DNA of 14,801 bases from a virus, in UHGV virus genome UHGV-0275206. One strand, written 5' to 3'. Shown piece by piece: positions 2,238 to 13,198 of the stretch; position 1 is the first letter of the stretch; every line of letters starts with the position of its first letter. The notes beneath the pieces are model-generated. The model was not told the DNA's origin. It did not search any database and saw only the letters and a program-made list of their open reading frames with translations. Position numbers and translations under genes: made by a program.

Positions 2238-2731
2238 TGTTGCCCCCACAAACAGACCTCACGCTCAATCTCACGACGAGTCATCAGGCCTTTCCATTGC
2301 TTACCGCCAGCGTATGCCCAGCGACGTAGCTGGTCACATGCGCCCTTGATATCGCCCTGGTTTATTTTGCGAAGAAGAGTAGATGTTCTGAAATTGCCTG
2401 CGCCCACGTTATAGACGAACGAGTAAAGAGCGCCGCGCGTTGTTTCCGGTATATCGACTTTGATGTACGGGTTAATTTGTCTGGCGACCGTGGCAAGGTC
2501 TTTATTCAGGAGGGCTTTGCATTCTGCTTCGGTATACGTTTTACCTAGCATGATGTCTTTTCCGGTGTGTCCGTAACATACAGTCCATACACCAACAATA
2601 TCTTTGTATGGTATGTGGCTAACACCTTCCAGACCATCGTCACCACTTGGGCCAGTGATTAACACAGATGCTATAGCAATTGCCCCACCACCAATAGCAG
2701 CAGCAACAGCCTTGCGTAATGATGGCGACAT
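2234..2731 (-). CDS. R: SAR endolysin (T4-lysozyme-like muramidase, phage 21 R-type)
   Basis: 165 aa, [59 protein letters not shown]...: Gly/Ala-rich N-terminal signal-anchor-release domain followed by a lysozyme fold; near-identical to what I recall of phage 21 R. Overlaps the holin stop by ATGA/TAATG coupling. Confidence 0.9.
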
Positions 2732-2946
2732 TATTCACCTCTCGCAGCCTTACGCTTATCTTCTTTAATCTTGAAATAAAGGTTTGTCAGATACGTCAGC
2801 AAGCCAAATACCAGACTACCCAGCACTCCAATTGCCGCCCACTGTGAGGGCGTGACTTTATCGAGCAACTGTAAAAACCAGTACCCGACACTACCTGCTG
2901 AGGTGCCATAGGCGACACCCGTTGTTAACTTATCCATGGATTTCAT
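2731..2946 (-). CDS. S: Pinholin, class II holin of phage 21 S type, with dual-start motif (MKSMDK)
   Basis: From ATG 2946: [71 protein letters not shown] (71 aa). The MKS-M start pair gives antiholin and holin forms. SD GAGGTGG upstream. The ORF-track extension to 3009 begins with GTG and is unlikely. Confidence 0.9.
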
Positions 2947-2983
2947 AACCCCACCTCGCAGATGCGGGTGCTGTGTAATGGAA

Positions 2984-3008
2984 ATAAAAAGGCCACCTGA
3001 CGTGGCCA
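2984..3008 (-). terminator. Rho-independent terminator between the methyltransferase gene and the holin (minus strand)
   Basis: Minus strand GGCCAC-GTCAG-GTGGCC (plus 2991..3007) immediately followed by TTTTTATTT. Confidence 0.7.
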
Positions 3009-3013
3009 CCAGA

Positions 3014-4066
3014 TTATTTCCCCACCAGCTCGTTTATCTCTTTCACTGTCTGGTTAAACCGCTCTGACTCAAGCTCAACACCTAAGGCCCGACGCCCCAA
3101 CGCCATTGCTGCTTTTATTGTGGAACCGGATCCCATAAAAAAATCAGCAACCAGATCACCAGGTCGACTACTGGCATTGATTATTTGCCTGAGCATATCC
3201 GCCGGTTTCTCACACGGATGTTTACCCGGGTAGAACTGAACGGGTTTATGCATCCAGACATCGGTATAAGGCACGGAGACTGATACGGAGAAATAGCGCC
3301 GGAGAGATTTAAACTCATCCAGCAATTCAGAATATTTACGATTCAGTGAATCATAAGATGCCACCAGTTGGTGGTGTGGTTGTTCCAGTTGTTGTTCCTG
3401 AAACTTCTCTGCCGCTATACGGGAAAACAGTGCCTGTAACTTCCGATAGTCAGCCTCATTCGGCAACTGCCACTGACTGGCACCAAACCAGTGGGAAACC
3501 ATATTTTTCTTACCTGTGGCTTCGGCAATTTGTTTTGCCGTTATACCCAGTTCGGCACGAGCATCCCTGAAATACGATATCAGCGGTGCCATTATGTGCT
3601 GTTTGAGTTCCCTTTCTTTTGCCGCATAGCCGTCACTTTTGCCGCGATATGGCCCCTGGTAATGTTCAGCAAACAGAACGCGCTCTGTGGCAGGAAAATA
3701 TGCGCGCAGACTTTCTTTATTACACCCATTCCAACGTCCGGACGGCTTCGCCCAGATGATATGGTTAAGCACGTTGAAACGTTCACGCATCATGATCTCA
3801 ATATCAGATGCCAGGCGATGCCCACAGAACAGGTAAAGGCTTCCGGCAGGTTTCAACACCCGCCAGAACTGGGCCAGACAGTGGTCCAGCCACTTAAGGT
3901 AATCTTCGTCCCCTTTCCACTGATTGTCCCAGCCGTTGGGTTTCACCTTGAAGTAAGGCGGATCGGTAACAATCAGGTCAATGGAATCATCAGGCAGGGA
4001 CTGAATAAAATGCAGGCAATCAGCGTTGATTAAATCAACACTGTTTATTTTTACAGTATTTTTCAT
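3014..4066 (-). CDS. DNA methyltransferase, beta-class (motif IV DPPY before motif I FxGxG); likely N6-adenine-specific orphan MTase
   Basis: 350 aa; [10 protein letters not shown] near the N-terminus and DFFMGSGST near the C-terminus. No adjacent restriction endonuclease gene. No SD at the start. Confidence 0.85.
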
Positions 4067-4216
4067 GGATCAGTAAGCGTAACTCTGGTAGGCTCACTCT
4101 GCTTTTGCGCTAAAGCAGTGGGCCGTGGTTCGCTTGTGACCAGTAGGCATGAGCGAATGGCTGGCAGGTGCTACCAACACCCACCAGCCGCCCATTTTCA
4201 CAGCAGGAAACCGCCA

Positions 4217-4420
4217 TTACTGGCAGCGTCTGAATTTATTCCCGTACCCGCCGTTATCCTTCGCCAGACCCGCCAGAACTAACTGAGTCAGTATTAACTG
4301 GCACCGGGCTTCGCTTACTCCGGTAGTTCTCGTCATCATGCGTGGCGTTACCCACTTGTCAGCAGGTAAGAAATGAAGGACTGCGGCGGCGGTTTCTGTC
4401 ATATCTTGCTGTTTTAGCAT
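4217..4420 (-). CDS. Small hypothetical protein (about 67 aa), possible winged-helix-like
   Basis: ORF 4217..4444. The internal ATG at 4420 has a good SD (AGAAGGGA, 7-nt spacing), whereas the first ATG has none. No recognised family. Confidence 0.4.
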   Translation of the reverse strand: MLKQQDMTETAAAVLHFLPADKWVTPRMMTRTTGVSEARCQLILTQLVLAGLAKDNGGYGNKFRRCQ

Positions 4421-4542
4421 GTCTTTTTCCCTTCTGGTTAACATGACATACCAATAACTCTTGTCTAAAATGCCAGCAAGATAAAAAGTCAGTATTCACG
4501 ACAACCAGCGTGTTTACTGTACTGCACCAGGTTTACAGGTAC

Positions 4543-4566
4543 AAAAAAACCGCTCAGCGGCGGGTT
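4543..4566 (-). terminator. Candidate tR'-like intrinsic terminator of a short late-promoter transcript
   Basis: Minus strand CCGC-TGA-GCGG short stem (extendable by a G-U) followed by TTTTTTT (plus A-run 4543..4549). Weak stem, strong T-tract. Confidence 0.4.
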
Positions 4567-4639
4567 TAAGTTGTGTGGCGAAGTAACCACTCTTAACATG
4601 CTAAATGAAAAAATGCGGACCGCGTTAGTGATTTTTCAT

Positions 4640-4695
4640 CTCTTTCACGTTAATTTAAGTCTACAGGATAGAATTAAAAATAAACTGAGGCAAAA
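4640..4695. promoter_or_regulatory. AT-rich divergent promoter region: candidate late promoter PR' (minus) and promoter for the plus-strand cargo operon
   Basis: Minus strand: -35 TTGCCT (plus 4688..4693), 17-bp spacer, -10 TATCCT (plus 4665..4670), then a -10-like TTAAAT element in the initially transcribed region, as in lambdoid PR' sigma-dependent pause sites. Plus strand: -10 TAGAAT (4669..4674) with a weak -35, then SD GAGG (4687..4690). Confidence 0.35.
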
Positions 4696-5559
4696 TTGGA
4701 TAGTTCTACCACTTTCAAAGTCTTCTATGATGCCGAAGATGAAGAATTAGCACAGCATAAGATTGATGCAAAAACACTAAGTTTATCAATAGGGTCTATG
4801 GCTGACCTTATTGCAAAGGCGGATCGAAATCTTAATGATGGGCAGGAAACAGTCAAATTGATGGTTACCGCTCCTGCTGCACCTGGATCAATCGGTGTTA
4901 TTTATTCAATGCAAGAGTTAGTTCCTCATGCTGTCGATGTCGCCAAAGCAATTGGACTCACTGTTGCTGGTGGTGCATTAGCTGGTGGCTCAGCTCTTGC
5001 ATTGATTCGACAATTGGGGAGTAGAAAGGTTATTTCTGTTACTCGAAAGGTCGACACACAAGAAGCAGTATTAGAACTTGATGGAGAAGAAATTATTTGT
5101 CATGAGGCTGTTGCAAAGTTAGTGACTGATCCCGAAATACGACAAGCCTTAGTTAACGTAGTTAGAGCACCACTAGATGGTAAAGAGCGCCCGATCTTCA
5201 AAATTACTGATGATAATGGAGAAGAGATTCTCAAGCTTGAAGGAGAAGAAACTGAAGAAATCAAACCACTACCACGTGGTACTTTACTAGAAAAAGAAGT
5301 TTCTATTGATGAGGTTAACGTCAGATTCATTCAAGTAAACTTTGAAGGGAATAAGGGATGGCGAATTGATTATCTTGGTGAAGAACATTCAGTAAGCCTA
5401 GATGACAATGTTTTCCTTTCGCAGGTTCAGGCTGCAACAGTACAATTTTCAAAAGAGGACCTTTATGTTGTTGATTTAGAAACAACAAAAACATTTACTG
5501 CGCGTGGCGTAACAAACCGTTATGCTATCAAAAAAGTTAAACGTAGACGACCAGCTTAA
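4696..5559 (+). CDS. Cargo gene A: acidic 287-aa protein of unknown function with one Gly-zipper hydrophobic segment
   Basis: TTG start 5 nt after SD GAGG. GC about 37-40% by eye versus about 50-55% in flanking phage genes. Segment AKAIGLTVAGGALAGGSALALIRQLG carries GxxxG motifs; basic C-terminal tail KKVKRRRPA. No catalytic motif recognised. Confidence 0.6.
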   Translation: MDSSTTFKVFYDAEDEELAQHKIDAKTLSLSIGSMADLIAKADRNLNDGQETVKLMVTAPAAPGSIGVIYSMQELVPHAVDVAKAIGLTVAGGALAGGSALALIRQLGSRKVISVTRKVDTQEAVLELDGEEIICHEAVAKLVTDPEIRQALVNVVRAPLDGKERPIFKITDDNGEEILKLEGEETEEIKPLPRGTLLEKEVSIDEVNVRFIQVNFEGNKGWRIDYLGEEHSVSLDDNVFLSQVQAATVQFSKEDLYVVDLETTKTFTARGVTNRYAIKKVKRRRPA

Positions 5560-5565
5560 ACAGGA

Positions 5566-5829
5566 ATGATGTTAACCCAGCAGATCATAGAACTCGCGAT
5601 GTGGATAGGGGTGATCATGATATCACCTCTCCTGTTTCGCTTCTCATACGCTGCATCCGCTTTACTATGGCGGAGGTTATTCCCTGTTCGTAAGTTTGAG
5701 TTTGTTTTTGTCGATGAAGTCACCAACGATAAGCGGTCAATCACTATTGTCATGCCTAAAGACAAAAGCAAAACTATCGTTCAACTGATAGAAGAAGCAA
5801 CGAATGACGGCACCAGTTCAAATGTCTGA
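5566..5829 (+). CDS. Cargo gene B: small membrane protein (87 aa, N-terminal transmembrane segment)
   Basis: Starts 7 nt after the gene A stop (AGGA ATG ATG). Hydrophobic stretch LAMWIGVIMISPLLFRFSYAASALLW, then a charged soluble tail. Confidence 0.55.
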   Translation: MMLTQQIIELAMWIGVIMISPLLFRFSYAASALLWRRLFPVRKFEFVFVDEVTNDKRSITIVMPKDKSKTIVQLIEEATNDGTSSNV

Positions 5830-6235
5830 TGAAAAAAAACCAACTAGCCCAGTCACTTCAACCCTCTCTACTGGCGGTTTTGGGATCATTTTGTCAGGTC
5901 TGGTAACATTTTGCGTACCTGATGCCAATTCAAACCTTGCGAAATTACTATATTTAATAATACCTCTTATTTCGGCAATCCTGACATATATACTTTGCTG
6001 GGTAATTGCACGTCATGGACTTGAATCACCAGAAGATGCAGCAAAAAGAAAGCAATGCCTCCGAGATCTCGAGACCATTGATAAGCAATTAGCATCGAAA
6101 TATACCACTGATGAGTTTAGGCAAAAGCTGCTACGCTCTCGAGAAGCAACTGTGGAAATAATGATCAATATAGGAAAAAATAGTACAGCAAATCCATTAC
6201 CAAAATTTGAACAAATTGAGAAAGATACTGTGTAG
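5804..6235 (+). CDS. Cargo gene C: membrane protein (143 aa, or 137 aa from ATG 5822) with two predicted TM helices and a charged C-terminal helical region
   Basis: Overlaps gene B (coupled). TM candidates GGFGIILSGLVTFCV and LAKLLYLIIPLISAILTYILCWVIA; C-terminal KRKQCLRDLETIDKQLASKYTTDEFRQKLLRSREATVEIM. Ends 18 bp from the convergent Q stop. Confidence 0.55.
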   Translation: MTAPVQMSDEKKPTSPVTSTLSTGGFGIILSGLVTFCVPDANSNLAKLLYLIIPLISAILTYILCWVIARHGLESPEDAAKRKQCLRDLETIDKQLASKYTTDEFRQKLLRSREATVEIMINIGKNSTANPLPKFEQIEKDTV

Positions 6236-6253
6236 GTATCTTTCTCATCTTAA

Positions 6254-6616
6254 TTAATCCATATCTAATGTTAGATCTAGCATTGAAAGGCAGCCATCAA
6301 TAAACCCCTCAGCCATCTGTATCTCAATGCGTATTAATTTCTCATCCTTTTTACGAGCCTTGGCGAGCTTTCTTTTAGAGATACCGAATAGGTAATGGGC
6401 AACAAGAAGCGAATGTTCGTCCGGCCTTTTTTGCTTTAGACGAGCAAGACAACCTTCAAGAATTAATGCATCACTATCTGAACAAGCCTGACGTGTTTTG
6501 CTTGTATAGGGAAGAAGCCCTTTAAACCCAGCAGCTATAGGAGAATAGTCAACTCCTGAACTATCACTCGCCGCCCATGCTCCCCAACGATCCAGAACCA
6601 TTTGAATATCACGCAT
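6254..6616 (-). CDS. Q: Late-gene antitermination protein Q (short Phage_antitermQ type, as in DLP12 QuuD / phage 82)
   Basis: From ATG 6616: MRDIQMVLDRWGAWAASDSSGVDYSPIAAGFKGLL...EGCLARLKQ...; close in pattern to the roughly 125-aa QuuD-type Q as I recall it. SD GGAG upstream. The track start at 6631 is a TTG. Confidence 0.8.
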   Translation of the reverse strand: MRDIQMVLDRWGAWAASDSSGVDYSPIAAGFKGLLPYTSKTRQACSDSDALILEGCLARLKQKRPDEHSLLVAHYLFGISKRKLAKARKKDEKLIRIEIQMAEGFIDGCLSMLDLTLDMD

Positions 6617-6633
6617 CAACTTTCTCCACAAAA

Positions 6634-7629
6634 TCAGGCCAGTACGCCAATTGCCAGCACACGATCGATAAAACGAAATATCAGCTCCAGTTGGGAGCCA
6701 TACTTCTCTTCAAATGCCACGGTATCTGCATGCAGCTCGTCGTGATGCTTTCTGCACAAAGGCAACACAAAAAGGTCATGCGCTTTTGTTCCCATTCCAC
6801 CCTGACCGTGACCTATCAGGTGGTGGGGATCATCAGCGGGCTTTCCACAACATGCACACGGCTGTGTCTTAACCCAGCGCGTGTACTTTTCATTAACCCA
6901 GCGGCGACGTTTTGGGCGTAACATAAAAGACTCCGGCGACTCCGGATCCACTTTCAGCGCCAGCACCTTTTTCGCCTTATCCTGGATGATGCTGGTGGCA
7001 GGAACCGAAGGCACAAGGTCACTTTCCCGGGTAACAGACGGCACAACAGGCTTCGGTAATCTCAGTGCCTTACGGGCTGCACTTTCCGGTAAGGCATCCG
7101 CCAGATCATTACGAATCAGCCACCAGCACAGTTCCGGCATTGTCACAACGTGACTGTCATCAAAACCGAGATCCCGACGCACAACAGACAACACCCAGCG
7201 GGCACAGTTATCCGTTGCCATTGATTCCAGCCGTTCCGTGAACTGATCGCGCAGCTGGTTATCGCAGTGCCAGCACAGACGGATTGCACCCGGAGCGTGT
7301 CGCATTGTGGTCATGTTCTCGCTGTGCCAGTCGGAATGAGGCCACTGGCAGCCTTTTTCACGAAGTAACCAGCTTTCAAGACATTCCACGCCACCAGCAC
7401 GACGGATCACTGCCTCATTGCGGAACACGGCCCGAACGGCAGGATCATCCGCCAGCGGTTGTGATGCCGCCGGAACGGCACCACTGGCGAAAGATGAATA
7501 ACGCTCCGGCTCAGGCTCCAGCAGGACACGCCCCTGCATAAACAGGGGCATCAGCTCTGAACCTGGCCTGAACAATACGATCCCCATACGCGGGGCTATT
7601 TCAGGGGTCAGTAGTGCTCTCACGGTCAC
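6634..7629 (-). CDS. DUF968 (YdfU-like) protein with C-terminal HNH-like Cys/His cluster
   Basis: 331 aa; C-terminal ...QPCACCGKPADDPHHLIGHGQGG...LPLCRKHHDELH; sits directly upstream of Q as ydfU does next to quuQ in Qin-type prophages. GTG start (alternative GTG at 7623 with SD GAGG). Confidence 0.75.
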   Translation of the reverse strand: MTVRALLTPEIAPRMGIVLFRPGSELMPLFMQGRVLLEPEPERYSSFASGAVPAASQPLADDPAVRAVFRNEAVIRRAGGVECLESWLLREKGCQWPHSDWHSENMTTMRHAPGAIRLCWHCDNQLRDQFTERLESMATDNCARWVLSVVRRDLGFDDSHVVTMPELCWWLIRNDLADALPESAARKALRLPKPVVPSVTRESDLVPSVPATSIIQDKAKKVLALKVDPESPESFMLRPKRRRWVNEKYTRWVKTQPCACCGKPADDPHHLIGHGQGGMGTKAHDLFVLPLCRKHHDELHADTVAFEEKYGSQLELIFRFIDRVLAIGVLA

Positions 7630-8849: not shown

Positions 8850-9172
8850 ACTTTCAGCCCCCTCTCATGTAACCAGTGGGCTGCACGCAGCCTTGCGTTT
8901 TCCTCACCGGCAAGCAGTGAGCGGATAATCCCGACCGCCTCGCTGTCGTCGTCCTTCACCGCGGTATGAAGCGTGATCCCCCGGGCCACACCACGCTTTA
9001 TCGTGATGACGCCTTTTTTCTCCAGTGCGCGAAGATGCTCCACCGCTGCATTCACCGAACGGTATCCCAGCATGGTTGCCACCTCCTGATTGGTTGGCGG
9101 GAAGCCGCGTTCTTTCTGATAAGAAATCAGCATATCCAGCACCTGCTGCTGGCATTGAGTTAACGTCGTCAT
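8846..9172 (-). CDS. LexA-type winged-helix DNA-binding domain protein (no peptidase domain)
   Basis: 108 aa; TQCQQQVLDMLISYQKERGFPPTNQEVATMLGYRSVNAAVEHLRALEKKGVI resembles the LexA N-terminal DNA-binding domain. ATGA-coupled to the upstream and downstream genes. Confidence 0.7.
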   Translation of the reverse strand: MTTLTQCQQQVLDMLISYQKERGFPPTNQEVATMLGYRSVNAAVEHLRALEKKGVITIKRGVARGITLHTAVKDDDSEAVGIIRSLLAGEENARLRAAHWLHERGLKV

Positions 9173-9821
9173 GCCGCCATCTCCCTGACCAGTTTTTCTG
9201 CCTGCTGGCGAATCTGCGCCAGAAAGGCCTCACCACATGCCTCAAGTTCATCGCGCCCGATGTAGCTGATTGCCGGTCCCTTCCAGGTCTTGTCGAAAAC
9301 AGCAATAGCACCAGCGAAGAAAGCGCCTGTCGGCACCTGCTTCTCATCCTTCGGGATAAACCAGGCAGGCAGTTCAAAACCAATACGCCCGCGAATAAAA
9401 GCAATATGATCTACATCTTCCGGCCACCACACTTCGCTGGTGGCAGCTTTGATCAGGAAAACATAGCGCCCGCCTTTATCACGCATGGCACTGGCATGCT
9501 TCATGATGTAACGCATGCCGGTGATGTATTGCCCCCATGCTGACTGGCGCGGCTGTATGGGGGATTACCAAAGGCAGCACCTTTAAGCTCCGCAAGGCGT
9601 TCTGACCAGTCATGCGCCAGCGCGTTGTCTTCCGCCGTGTAATACGCAGCACATTTGGCGTTATCACCGTCAGTGAACAGATCCAGAACAAACGGGCCAA
9701 ACAGGGTGTTAATTCCCCAGAAAATGTTGTCCGGCGTGCGCCACTGATCGCCCACTTCCTTCAGTTCATGGGCTGGTTTGTTCCGCAGTTCCACCAGCGC
9801 CTGGCAATATTTATTACTCAT
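9169..9821 (-). pseudogene. Phage Dam-type DNA N6-adenine methyltransferase (PF05869-like) split by a -1 frameshift in a C5/G5 homopolymer
   Basis: N-terminal ORF (9501..9821) carries ...AFGNPPYSRASQHGG and stops. C-terminal ORF (9169..9516) carries ...AFIRGRIGFELP...PTGAFFAGAIAVFD. Both halves together resemble a single Dam-family protein. Adding one C to the run at 9532..9536 fuses them as ...SQHGGQYITGMRYIMKH... Confidence 0.75.
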
Positions 9822-10309
9822 TAAGCCCCCACGTAATTCCCTGAGAGATACCACTCTTCACCTGATGCAGCCCGCTTACTGCTTTTCCGTAAACACCGTT
9901 CACGACGCGCCAAAAAATTGTTTCGTTCTGGCAGGGAGTGGCTTTCACGGAATGCCGCCATCCACACCGTTGCAGCACGACGGTATAAGCCCCTGGACTC
10001 CAGTTCTTCCGCCTGGCGGGTCAGGCACAAAATCACCCGCGGGTCGTTAGTGCCGACATAGAAATTGCGCACAGGTCTGGTTTCACGAACTGGTTGTGGT
10101 TCCGGATCCTGCGCTCTCTCAGTCAGGCGCGGGAAATGTCTGTGTGTATCTCCTTCACAACGGTGAGCCACACGCCCACTCTGACGTAACTTGCTTGCTG
10201 ACTGCAGAACGCGCTGCCGTGAGTAACCTGCAAAAGCATCCGCAATGTCTCCGGAAGTACAGCCCGGATGGGCTTCAATGAATTTCTGAACGTCATTCAA
10301 AAGACTCAT
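9821..10309 (-). CDS. PerC-family transcriptional activator-like protein with an extra N-terminal domain
   Basis: C-terminal AEELESRGLYRRAATVWMAAFRESHSLPERNNFLARRERCLRKS resembles PerC-family regulators; the N-terminal roughly 60 aa (MSLLNDVQKFIEAHPGCTSGDIADAFAGYSRQRVLQSASKLRQSG) looks like a separate winged-helix-like module. Start ATG 10309 lies just after the rep stop. Confidence 0.6.
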   Translation of the reverse strand: MSLLNDVQKFIEAHPGCTSGDIADAFAGYSRQRVLQSASKLRQSGRVAHRCEGDTHRHFPRLTERAQDPEPQPVRETRPVRNFYVGTNDPRVILCLTRQAEELESRGLYRRAATVWMAAFRESHSLPERNNFLARRERCLRKSSKRAASGEEWYLSGNYVGA

Positions 10310-12505: not shown

Positions 12506-13198
12506 ATGAACATAGGAAACCGAGTCAGACAACTTCGCCAAGCGAAGAACATGAAAATCGCCGATCTCGCTGAAGCAATAGGAGTAGATGCGGCGAACAT
12601 CTCGCGCTTAGAAACGGGTAAGCAAAAACAATTTACCGAACAAACACTGAGTAATATTGCCAAGAGCTTAGGTGTTGATATTGCTGATCTCTTTACCTCT
12701 GCCCACAAAAGTAATACTGTATATAAAAACAGTAATAATGAGGATGTTGCGCAGGTGAAGGATGTGTTCCGTATTGAAATGCTGGATATCAGTGCCAGTG
12801 CGGGAAATGGCCTTATCCAGGGCGGTGATGTCATTGATGTGATTCATGCCATCGAATACAGAACTGATAATGCTGTATCAATGTTCGGCGGACGACCAGC
12901 CAATCACATCAAAGTTATCAACGTTCGTGGGGACAGTATGTGTCCAACCATTGAGCCAGGAGATCTCATCTTCGTTGATGTCAGCATCAATCAGTTTGAT
13001 GGTGATGGTATATATGTCTTTGGTTTTGATGACAAAATATACGTTAAAAGACTTCAAATGATTCCTGACAAACTGCTGGTGATTTCTGATAACCAGATTT
13101 ACCGTGAATGGGGAATTACTAGCGAAAACGAACACCGATTCATGGTCTTTGGAAAGGTCTTAATCAGTCAGTCGCAAACCCTTAAGAGACATAATTAA
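12506..13198 (+). CDS. cI: CI-type prophage repressor: N-terminal XRE HTH plus C-terminal S24 (LexA-like) autopeptidase domain
   Basis: 230 aa; IADLAEAIGVDAANISRLETGKQ HTH; C-terminal GDSMCPTIEPGDLIFVD...YVKRL with Ser/Lys dyad; candidate Ala-Gly cleavage site in DISASAGNG. Confidence 0.88.
   Translation: MNIGNRVRQLRQAKNMKIADLAEAIGVDAANISRLETGKQKQFTEQTLSNIAKSLGVDIADLFTSAHKSNTVYKNSNNEDVAQVKDVFRIEMLDISASAGNGLIQGGDVIDVIHAIEYRTDNAVSMFGGRPANHIKVINVRGDSMCPTIEPGDLIFVDVSINQFDGDGIYVFGFDDKIYVKRLQMIPDKLLVISDNQIYREWGITSENEHRFMVFGKVLISQSQTLKRHN

Follow-up and report, generated by a model that had tools for sequence, protein, structure and literature searches.

The window analysed here comprises 14,801 nt from the virus genome UHGV-0275206. 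On its minus strand, a gene at 3014..4066 encodes a 350-aa beta-class N6-adenine DNA methyltransferase, which was assigned to the M.EcoGII family by its PF01555 match and its identity to M.EcoGII. This gene is preceded by a small ORF for a 67-aa winged-helix protein and followed just downstream by an S21-type holin gene (EssD; 2731..2946, minus strand; PF04971 Phage_holin_2_1, E 6e-35), the first lysis gene, which RefSeq annotates as essD in the identical FORC_042 prophage. Two hairpins, T1 (4542-4566) and T2 (2982-3007), bracket the methylase and the small ORF. The first-pass annotation had described an orphan beta-class methyltransferase and a small upstream ORF enclosed by two terminator-like hairpins upstream of the holin; our analysis confirmed this layout and recovered both terminators (4542-4566; 2982-3007) where they had been placed. 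Its view that the methylase lies on the late strand, where Q-modified polymerase would read it, was also supported.

The methylase matches PF01555 (N6_N4_Mtase) over positions 1-220 of the 221-position profile, with an E-value of 2.2e-42 and 145.9 bits, above the curated cut-off of 26.7. Because motif IV (DPPY, residues 35-38) precedes motif I (FFMGSGST, residues 309-316) and the best solved relatives (M.RsrI, MboIIA, and CcrM) are beta-class, the enzyme was placed in this class; its halves align to each of these relatives separately. No nuclease gene or domain was found in the flanking ORFs, the neighbours being the winged-helix ORF and the holin, so the term orphan holds, and the cognate endonuclease gene that adjoins the methylase in Type II restriction-modification systems is missing here. 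The protein is 100% identical to the methylase of cdtI, 81% identical to M.EcoGII over its full length (281/349 residues, central recognition domain included, with only two single-residue gaps), and 89% identical to the reconstructed Anc291 (310/348 residues), the last two reference sequences having been machine-read from a PDF supplement (PMC11551740), so that occasional residue errors are possible. M.EcoGII has been shown to modify adenine irrespective of the surrounding sequence (PMC5778455), Anc291 was expressed by the SUPREM authors and is active on DNA and RNA (PMC11551740), and the specificity of Serratia OS31_p25 and Aeromonas ARM81ld_p56 is reported to be relaxed (PMC7556043). The methylase of the window falls between tested non-specific relatives at 81%, 64%, and 53% identity and, by analogy with the M.EcoGII clade, would methylate adenines in almost any context. 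A target motif, whose determination had been suggested in the first-pass annotation, is thus unlikely to emerge, as three tested members of the clade show no or very relaxed specificity; with no motif to be expected, such an experiment is bound to fail, and a comparison of total m6A between virion DNA and lysogen DNA would be the better suited assay. The annotation had also counted a second adenine methyltransferase candidate, a Dam-type gene in the nin region (~9169-9822). This gene is frameshifted here: compared with E. coli FORC_042, whose allele is intact, it has lost 1 nt near 9535/9536, which splits it. Either it is a pseudogene here or the sequence contains an error.

The small upstream ORF (4217..4420, minus strand; 75 aa if the upstream ATG at 4444 is used) proved to be real and conserved. 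It belongs to phrog_331, is found with the methylase in lambdoid relatives and Photorhabdus, and has relatives at ~50% identity that are named TrmB-family regulators. Its AlphaFold2 model (pLDDT 87.6) has an H-H-H-beta-beta layout, and the Foldseek matches of this model include TrmBL2, Zalpha, the SelB winged helix, and IclR. The predicted structure is a generic winged helix only, with DNA-binding and RNA-binding examples scoring about equally.

The late antiterminator Q gene (6254..6631, minus strand; 125 aa; PF06530 Phage_antitermQ, E 5.7e-52) encodes a protein that is 89% identical to the Q of cdtI and 47% identical to that of Stx2a phages. From homology with Sakai prophage Sp5, whose PR' has been mapped, we infer a late promoter PR' at 4591..4623 (minus strand), with a -10 element TAGCAT (4598-4603) and a start near 4591. 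A candidate Q-binding palindrome, GCGGTCCGC (4615-4623, minus strand), occurs only with the closely related Q subtype. In Sp5, the PR' start was mapped by dRNA-seq and an RNase E site lies at +173 (PMC7547250); these mapped data place the start 7 nt after TATCAT. The Sp5 promoter is constitutive and is overridden by Q, and lysogens make a 258-nt StxS transcript (PMC7547250). The PR'-StxS-tR' region of the Stx phages Sp5 and Sp15 (PMC7547250) is homologous to the window in its -10 region, at the beginning of the transcript, and in the first hairpin with its U7. It differs in that Sp5 has lost the small ORF, the leader RNA described below, and most of the methylase, of which a C-terminal remnant is left, and in that the tR' mapped there is a further, second terminator, located at +258, to which the window has no counterpart. 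Two other placements were rejected. A PR' directly after the Q stop (6254) was discarded on account of a reverse-strand cassette that abuts Q within 19 nt; cassette-free relatives (1720a-02 and PhiR49_2) have the counterpart of the ~4541-4645 block directly after Q. A reading of Sp5 in which tR' is the first hairpin and the start lies inside Q was rejected on the published site positions: only with a start at position 746 of the Sp5 locus (L183:746) does the published GU|AUU RNase E site fall at +173 and the 3' end within a run of U, and with this start both published Sp5 coordinates differ from NC_002695.2 by the same 142 nt.

Downstream of PR', three hairpins follow on the minus strand. T1 (4542..4566), the promoter-proximal intrinsic terminator that had been called tR'-like, consists of a five-pair stem (4561..4549) followed by U7 (4543-4549) and lies shortly downstream of the inferred late start, at about +27 to +49, as is typical of a tR'. 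Its hairpin is weak (-7.1 kcal/mol, z -1.3), with 19 of 200 shuffles folding equally well; it is kept in all relatives, and the records of SfV and Ayreon list it as a terminator. The Sp5 counterpart of T1 (+26 to +49), which is stronger than T1 itself, is read through in lysogens; the 3' end mapped in Sp5 is not at this hairpin but at +258. The second hairpin, P0 (4210..4227; GCUGCCAGUAAUGGCGGU then UUCCUGCUG), holds the stop codon of the small ORF and is a degenerate terminator here: it has no U-tract in this window, while 32 of 71 distinct relatives have an equivalent hairpin with a full U-tract, and in N15 and phiKO2 the P0 equivalent is the annotated terminator after the late promoter. The third, T2 (2982..3007), begins 6 nt past the methylase stop codon and separates the methylase from the holin; its six G+C-rich pairs (stem 3007..2991) with UUUUUAUUU form a strong intrinsic terminator (-15.6 kcal/mol, z -3.8; 0/200 shuffles), the strongest of the three, and the SfV and Ayreon records carry an annotation for it.

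Immediately before the methylase start codon lies a conserved structured RNA leader of ~125 nt (4072..4194, minus strand) with five helices: P1 (4190-4194/4119-4123), P2 (4178-4189/4159-4170), P3 (4146-4157/4129-4141), P4 (4112-4118/4099-4105), and P5 (4092-4098/4072-4078). The predicted minimum free energy is -68.3 kcal/mol (z -3.5). RNAalifold on a plain MAFFT alignment recovered the fold only partly; the helices were therefore set by hand, tested on the same MAFFT alignment, and then realigned by a covariance model. Across the alignment, 78-81% of cells are compatible with the pairing, compared with 30-47% in slid controls; 21 to 32 of the 43 pairs changed on both sides, and none of 500 shuffles reached the observed values of pairing and change. 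Conservation of the leader, with numerous compensatory changes, extends from the phages of E. coli to those of Vibrio and Aeromonas, and it is present in about one fifth of complete E. coli genomes. Each methylase locus has one match to the covariance model, which in every case extends up to the first start codon, and two deletion derivatives in which the methylase is gone (Sp5-type L177 and PhiR49_2 L178) also lack the leader. A search of 2700-6700 against Rfam 15 (E <= 1) returned no match to the leader and only a chance microRNA match at 6212-6258, and we found no description of this RNA in the literature.

Several simple readings of the leader were discarded. A hidden ORF was rejected, given stops in every frame in 23-40 of 40 sequences. 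The methylase AUG is predicted to be mostly unpaired (probability 0.78), which does not support a simple mask of the start codon. The ribosome-binding site of the methylase is weak (UGAUC only); its pairing with a conserved GGUCA in P3, or else with the loop of P5, was dropped, as inspection by eye revealed no covariation, and a boxA/nut-like reading of CGCUC in P3 was dropped as well, this motif not being conserved in other lineages. Most likely, the leader adds post-transcriptional control of the methylase, acting on translation, stability, or processing. It could possibly be bound by the winged-helix protein encoded alongside it or by the methylase, or else sense a ligand. Whether the leader and the preceding hairpin form an undescribed class of cis-regulatory RNA dedicated to checking M.EcoGII-type non-specific methyltransferases seems to us about an even bet. 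A large catalogue of candidate phage RNAs (PMC10690425) mentions four motifs upstream of 'DNA N-6-adenine-methyltransferase' genes, and the leader may already be catalogued in this set, though uncharacterised.

Taken together, the locus is probably best explained as an M.EcoGII-type late-operon module that is held back by serial terminators in the lysogen, read through by Q-modified polymerase upon induction, used against restriction, and controlled in addition by its leader RNA. Gene identity, anatomy, conservation, and RNA secondary structure were shown here, and from these the promoter position, the silence in the lysogen, the anti-restriction role, and the function of the RNA are inferred. 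In the lysogen, transcription would start from PR' near 4591, and unmodified polymerase would meet T1, the weak P0, and the strong T2 in series, such that little or nothing would reach the holin and the toxic methylase would be effectively off. Upon induction, Q would modify the polymerase at PR' and thereby allow read-through of T1, P0, and T2. The winged-helix protein and the methylase, the first enzyme encoded on the late transcript and located directly before the lysis genes, would then be made, followed by the holin, endolysin, and spanin. Replicating phage DNA would thus be heavily adenine-methylated before packaging, and the progeny could resist many restriction systems in the next host. 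An anti-restriction role, which the first-pass annotation had raised, is the accepted reading for the M.EcoGII family and by analogy may apply to this allele; our literature search found no report of restriction protection by this family during real infection.

The annotation had further proposed that the bracket lets the methylase be expressed in the lysogen. Amended accordingly, the explanation would be low methylase expression in the lysogen, either from an own promoter or by escape from PR' past T1, with T2 halting transcripts before the holin and the prophage giving its host an epigenetic or anti-restriction trait; we regard this as unlikely. The idea of lysogenic expression was only partly supported, as no promoter was found inside the bracket. 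A sigma-70 consensus scan, which weak or activated promoters can escape, detected nothing promoter-like from T1 to the small ORF; the single match before the methylase start is weak (9/12) and lies inside the small ORF, and the window as a whole contains fewer promoter-like matches than shuffled sequences (12 versus a mean of 18.4). Inspection by eye of 4445-4548 on the minus strand and of the small ORF gave only 3/6 hexamers and was rejected as evidence. Of the features of a moron, the consensus scan did not reveal an own promoter active in the prophage, while an insert between genes adjacent in relatives and a terminator at its end were both found (Sp5 and PhiR49_2 are without most of the module, and T2 stands at its end). 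Escape from PR' past T1 fared better. Because T1 lies near the PR' start and its Sp5 counterpart (+26 to +49) is read through in lysogens, unmodified polymerase may reach the methylase without a promoter of its own; with T1 weak, its Sp5 homologue leaky, and P0 without a U-tract, some methylase mRNA might be made in the lysogen. If polymerase passes T1, then T2, the strongest of the three terminators, would be the last block before the holin. The terminator-gene-terminator anatomy is also moron-like, and the module travels as a unit (breakpoints at 4566 and ~2952). Against such lysogenic expression, M.EcoGI and M.EcoGII are reported to cause no methylation in the lysogen and to harm cells when expressed constitutively (PMC5778455, PMC12707154). 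Non-specific adenine methylation would disturb Dam-dependent host functions, and the conserved leader RNA and the weak UGAUC ribosome-binding site favour restraint over steady expression.

The module is widespread. The search for related loci in viral contigs gave 80 near-identical E. coli loci, and the diversity in our comparison came from a species-level genome collection. The module occurs in about 1,100-1,300 of the 5,426 complete genomes of E. coli, and the methylase lies just ahead of holin or lysin genes in cdtI, SfV, Ayreon, phiP27, Hafnia, Providencia, and Serratia as well as in LLS, phiKO2, PY54, N15, ARM81ld, VHML, and Val-yong3. Homology breaks sharply at 4566 and ~2952, and the segment between them moves as a unit; at the T1 edge (4566), homology with SfV, mEp460, and Ayreon ends. 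The modules of SfV (orf47-orf48), Ayreon, mEp460, and cdtI mostly show 97-99% DNA identity across 2952-4566 (for SfV, 96% over 79% of the query), whereas SfV, Ayreon, and mEp460 have another Q of roughly 250 aa and another sequence upstream of T1. M.EcoGII and M.EcoGI of the E. coli O104:H4 C227-11 prophages (PMC5778455) are likewise beta-class, 349-350 aa long, prophage-borne, and orphan. The closest phage context named in that study, 1720a-02, has the same order of Q, T1, small ORF, hairpin, RNA, and methylase. The present allele differs from M.EcoGII in belonging to the cdtI/mEp460/SfV subgroup, and the P0 U-tract present in 1720a-02 is lost here. In the linear-plasmid prophages N15 (gene 52), phiKO2 (gene 52), and PY54 (ORF60), the methylases are only 56-61% identical to this protein, and the leader RNA is present. 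The N15 and phiKO2 records show the order late promoter, terminator, methylase, terminator, and holin, as here; in these linear-plasmid prophages, however, a winged-helix-like gene (gp51) lies upstream of the promoter, not downstream of the first terminator. In the Aeromonas and Vibrio relatives ARM81ld and Val-yong3, a Com-like zinc-ribbon ORF was observed between the leader RNA and the methylase.

These comparisons also bear on whether the terminators have anything to do with the methylase. They might simply mark the generic edges of mosaic modules, or be remnants of recombination between phages, the bracket then being incidental, as would fit the coincidence of the homology breakpoints with T1 (4566) and the holin start (~2952), the richness of the window in terminator-like hairpins (34 versus 15.7 +/- 4.2 in shuffles), and the fact that, under strict criteria, only 33 of 78 diverse species-level relatives have such a hairpin within 150 nt after the methylase stop. 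We consider this quite improbable. Most of these hairpins stand in the same place, 5-9 nt past the stop, with stems of varying and unrelated sequence in many genera as well as in N15, phiKO2, and SfV, and this recurrence with different sequences argues for selection of the terminator feature; a hairpin also directly precedes the leader RNA in most relatives inspected.

It is more doubtful still, and we think very improbable, that the main substrate or role of the methylase lies elsewhere, in late RNA methylation or in replication or packaging like P1 Dam: M.EcoGII does methylate RNA and DNA:RNA hybrids in vitro (PMC5778455), and anti-restriction does not require that the gene stay so closely linked to the lysis genes in distant phages, but the RNA rate is ~100-fold below the DNA rate (0.12 versus 11.12; PMC11551740 Table S3), and a PY54-like phage with an insertion in its methylase gene is still able to lyse and lysogenise (PMC10612081), a dispensability that is as expected of an anti-restriction accessory gene.

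The late-operon reading has a parallel in the com-mom operon of phage Mu, in which a toxic late DNA modification is silent in the lysogen and subject to several control layers (PMC12707154). The two systems differ in that the window has neither a Com activator gene nor a stem that is predicted to sequester the start codon, and in that N6-methylation takes the place of the Mom modification.

Overall, the observation as first made describes a methylase module that is standard in the late operons of many temperate phages infecting Enterobacterales, Aeromonas, and Vibrio, and in itself it adds little: the enzyme family, the absent sequence specificity, and the silence in lysogens are already known, and the layout of terminator, gene, terminator, and holin is on record through the annotations of SfV, Ayreon, N15, and phiKO2. 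Possible novelty may be limited to the leader RNA (4072-4194). The locus matters for the question of how a toxic and widely used enzyme is naturally silenced, which its anatomy makes testable: the proposed PR' at ~4591 is followed by a leaky proximal terminator, the winged-helix ORF and a hairpin, and then by the deeply conserved leader RNA, the weak ribosome-binding site of the methylase, and the strong terminator that precedes the holin.

The late genes of this lambdoid prophage lie on the minus strand. In gene order, a cI-like repressor (12506-13198, plus strand) is followed by replication and nin-region genes, a Dam-type gene (minus strand), RusA, a KilA-N protein, a DUF968 protein, Q (6254-6631), three ORFs (4696-6235) on the plus strand, running against the late genes, the inferred Q-dependent late promoter PR' and the methylase region, downstream of which come holin (2731-2946), endolysin (2234-2731) and spanin (1770-2249). 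Several E. coli chromosomes, FORC_042 among them, match the window with 100% identity over 2900-4700. The methylase ORF (3014-4066, minus strand) encodes 350 aa and proved to be an orphan beta-class methyltransferase, as the first-pass annotation had proposed: it has a full-length PF01555 match (Pfam), its DPPY close to the N-terminus and FxGxG close to the C-terminus follow the beta-class order, its closest solved structures are beta-class enzymes, and no endonuclease gene was found near it. It is 100%, 99.7% and 98.3% identical to its counterparts in phages cdtI, mEp460 and SfV (orf48), respectively, and 81% identical over the full length to M.EcoGII (sequence from the SUPREM paper supplement). 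Its identity to Anc291, a reconstructed ancestor, is 89%; when expressed by the SUPREM authors, Anc291 was active on DNA as well as on RNA (PMC11551740). M.EcoGII methylates adenine in any context (PMC5778455), and relaxed or absent specificity was also reported for two remoter relatives, OS31_p25 of Serratia (64%) and ARM81ld_p56 of Aeromonas (53%), by authors who already predicted it for the homologues in E. coli phages (PMC7556043). These identities, together with the relaxed specificity of the relatives, indicate that the protein, judged by its sequence, belongs to a family already known and characterised, and a target motif is not to be expected of it. The claim of a second adenine-methyltransferase candidate did not hold, since the nin-region Dam-family (PF05869) gene (about 9169-9822, minus strand) is broken by a 1-nt deletion at about 9535/9536 relative to the intact FORC_042 allele, resulting in two ORFs split just after the NPPY motif.

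The two hairpins said to bracket the methylase were both found where they had been placed. T2, the terminator before the holin (2982-3007), is strong (-15.6 kcal/mol, z -3.8), starts 6 nt beyond the end of the methylase ORF and leaves 36 nt to the holin start codon, while T1, on the promoter side (4542-4566), has five pairs only, followed by U7 (-7.1 kcal/mol, z -1.3). The same arrangement is annotated in other records: both terminators surround the same two genes in SfV and Ayreon, and in those of N15 and phiKO2 a late promoter is followed by a first terminator, the methylase and another terminator ahead of the holin. In every phage relative examined (E. coli, Hafnia, Providencia, Serratia, Klebsiella, Yersinia, Aeromonas and Vibrio), the methylase either adjoins the lysis genes or precedes them by a few genes, the latter being the case in Stx phages and in that of Providencia. 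A terminator-like hairpin was present within 150 nt of the stop codon in 33 of the 78 species-level genomic loci, mostly 5-9 nt after it. Because this terminator recurs with unrelated stem sequences, the pattern argues that it is itself under selection. A further hairpin, P0 (4210-4227, minus strand), contains in its loop the TAA stop codon of the small ORF upstream of the methylase; its U-tract has decayed to UUUCCUGCUG in the window but is kept in many relatives. Most relatives carry a GC-rich hairpin at this position, directly 5' of the leader RNA described below, and in many it is a full intrinsic terminator abutting that RNA. As a whole, the module is ordinary: a non-specific adenine methyltransferase already known, encoded where such genes usually lie, at the start of the late operon, and flanked by terminators annotated by others.

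The position of T1 relative to PR' was deduced from Sakai Stx prophage Sp5, in which the PR' start, a 3' end 258 nt downstream and an RNase E cleavage at +173 (in GUAUU, between GU and AUU) have been mapped (PMC7547250). In the Sakai sequence, a single arrangement accommodates all three: the transcript starts at the central A in TAAG-A-GTGG, 7 nt downstream of the hexamer TATCAT, and the second terminator provides the U-run on which its 3' end falls. The two published positions are then shifted relative to NC_002695.2 by an identical 142 nt. The block at ~4541-4645 of the window has its homologue downstream of Q in Sp5, and in 1720a-02 and PhiR49_2, which have the same Q subtype and no cassette, the matching block directly follows the Q stop codon. 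Carried over from Sp5, the -10 hexamer TAGCAT lies at 4598-4603 and the start near 4591, by which homology T1 would be the promoter-proximal terminator at +27 to +49 of the PR' transcript. Placing PR' directly after the Q stop codon (6254) was rejected, as only 19 nt separate it from the end of the reverse-strand cassette. The palindrome GCGGTCCGC (4615-4623), between the -35 and -10 positions, was found only alongside closely related Q proteins and is for this reason a candidate Q-binding site.

The cassette site between Q and PR' looks like an accessory-gene hotspot. Other reverse-strand cassettes occupy the 4696-6235 position in related prophages; here, the first ORF (287 aa) matches the PADLOC candidate defence family PDC-S42 (E 1e-32) and NCBIfam LAPAL_fam, and a perfect 12-13-pair palindrome (hairpin 6217-6247, z -5.0) stands at the cassette end beside the Q stop codon. 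The top promoter-like match of the window (4443-4471, plus strand; ATGACA, 17 nt, TAAAAT; 10/12) is antisense to the small ORF start and directed through T1 at the cassette; it may be due to chance, because its sequence is also kept in cassette-less phages. In Stx2a-type phages, the last ~35 methylase codons remain between the mapped tR' and tRNA genes (Sp5, locus L183, ~1010-1120; PhiR49_2, locus L178, 3048-3326), and since only this C-terminal part is kept, these phages are deletion derivatives of the module.

Expression of the bracketed methylase in the lysogen, which the first-pass annotation had also proposed, stands only in part. Effective silence is most likely: silence and toxicity are reported for M.EcoGI and M.EcoGII, the latter giving no methylation in its lysogen and being harmful when expressed (PMC5778455; PMC12707154). 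Moreover, a conserved leader lies upstream of the methylase, and the ribosome-binding site of the gene is weak. The sole complement to the 16S rRNA 3' end near the start codon is the GATC (a Dam site) at 4068-4071, 1 nt before the ATG, and UGAUC(U/C)AUG is retained in nearly all enterobacterial relatives. Set against these points, the live alternative is low-level expression through leakage at T1, in which case T2 would be the effective barrier before the holin. The Sp5 homologue of T1 is stronger, yet enough polymerase passes it in lysogens for the 258-nt StxS RNA, and by this analogy T1 is probably leaky; such leakage would suffice without a promoter of the methylase's own, and P0, the next hairpin after T1, is without a U-tract in the window. 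The usual reading as a moron, an insert with its own promoter, is not supported, because in our scan nothing promoter-like lay between T1 and the small ORF, and a single weak match was all that preceded the methylase.

The small ORF (4217-4420, minus strand) is conserved and encodes 67 aa from the RefSeq start. Its AlphaFold2 model (pLDDT 87.6) matches both DNA-binding and RNA-binding winged helices, and the product is thus predicted to be a stand-alone winged-helix protein; N15-group gp51 proteins align to it weakly (17-20% identity). Possible targets are the leader RNA or methylated DNA.

This leader RNA (4072-4202, minus strand) comprises five helices with strong covariation in Enterobacterales, Aeromonas and Vibrio phages. 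The 150 nt from the small ORF to the start of the methylase form a much more stable fold than shuffled sequences (-68.3 kcal/mol, z -3.5), and the interval can still be aligned between phages that share no more than 56-65% identity in the methylase. The blocks AAUGGGCG, GGCCCA and GAGCCUAnCA are invariant, whereas the intervening stems vary in sequence and remain complementary. Covariation was assessed on 40 sequences of at most 93% mutual identity (32 genomic loci, the window and seven phages), with the five helices set by hand. In a plain MAFFT alignment, 78% of the cells pair, compared to 30-47% with slid partners, and 21 pairs are changed on both sides; none of 500 shuffles reached the observed values. 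After realignment with a covariance model (75 hits), 81% of the cells pair (31-46% when slid) and 32 of 43 pairs are changed on both sides (13-18 in slid controls), although this alignment is fitted to the structure and the MAFFT figures are the conservative ones. G-U pairs are frequent on the leader strand, which fits an RNA read in the methylase sense, and no reading frame is open across the region.

With the covariance model, hits came at exactly one per methylase locus, in the orientation of the methylase and ending at the first start codon; VHML, Val-yong3, PhiR46_1 and ARM81ld were hit as well. In Val-yong3 (L180, 1862-1978) and ARM81ld (L016, 2862-3077), a small Com-like or zinc-ribbon ORF stands between the RNA and the methylase, and the RNA ends there; these Aeromonas and Vibrio ORFs echo com-mom of Mu. 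The RNA was not found in P2-like phiO18P, Photorhabdus L150 (which at least retains the small ORF) or Xenorhabdus L156, nor, by a motif check, in other loci of those two genera. It was also not found in Sp5-type phages and PhiR49_2, two deletion derivatives without the methylase, and its loss accompanies methylase loss. Rfam gave no match and no description was found in the papers searched, among which a large phage RNA catalogue (PMC10690425) mentions unnamed motifs upstream of adenine methyltransferase genes. A simple start-codon mask was rejected as its role, the AUG being mostly unpaired in the predicted fold. It is this leader RNA, inside the region delimited by the first-pass annotation (2984-4566), that is the part worth following up.
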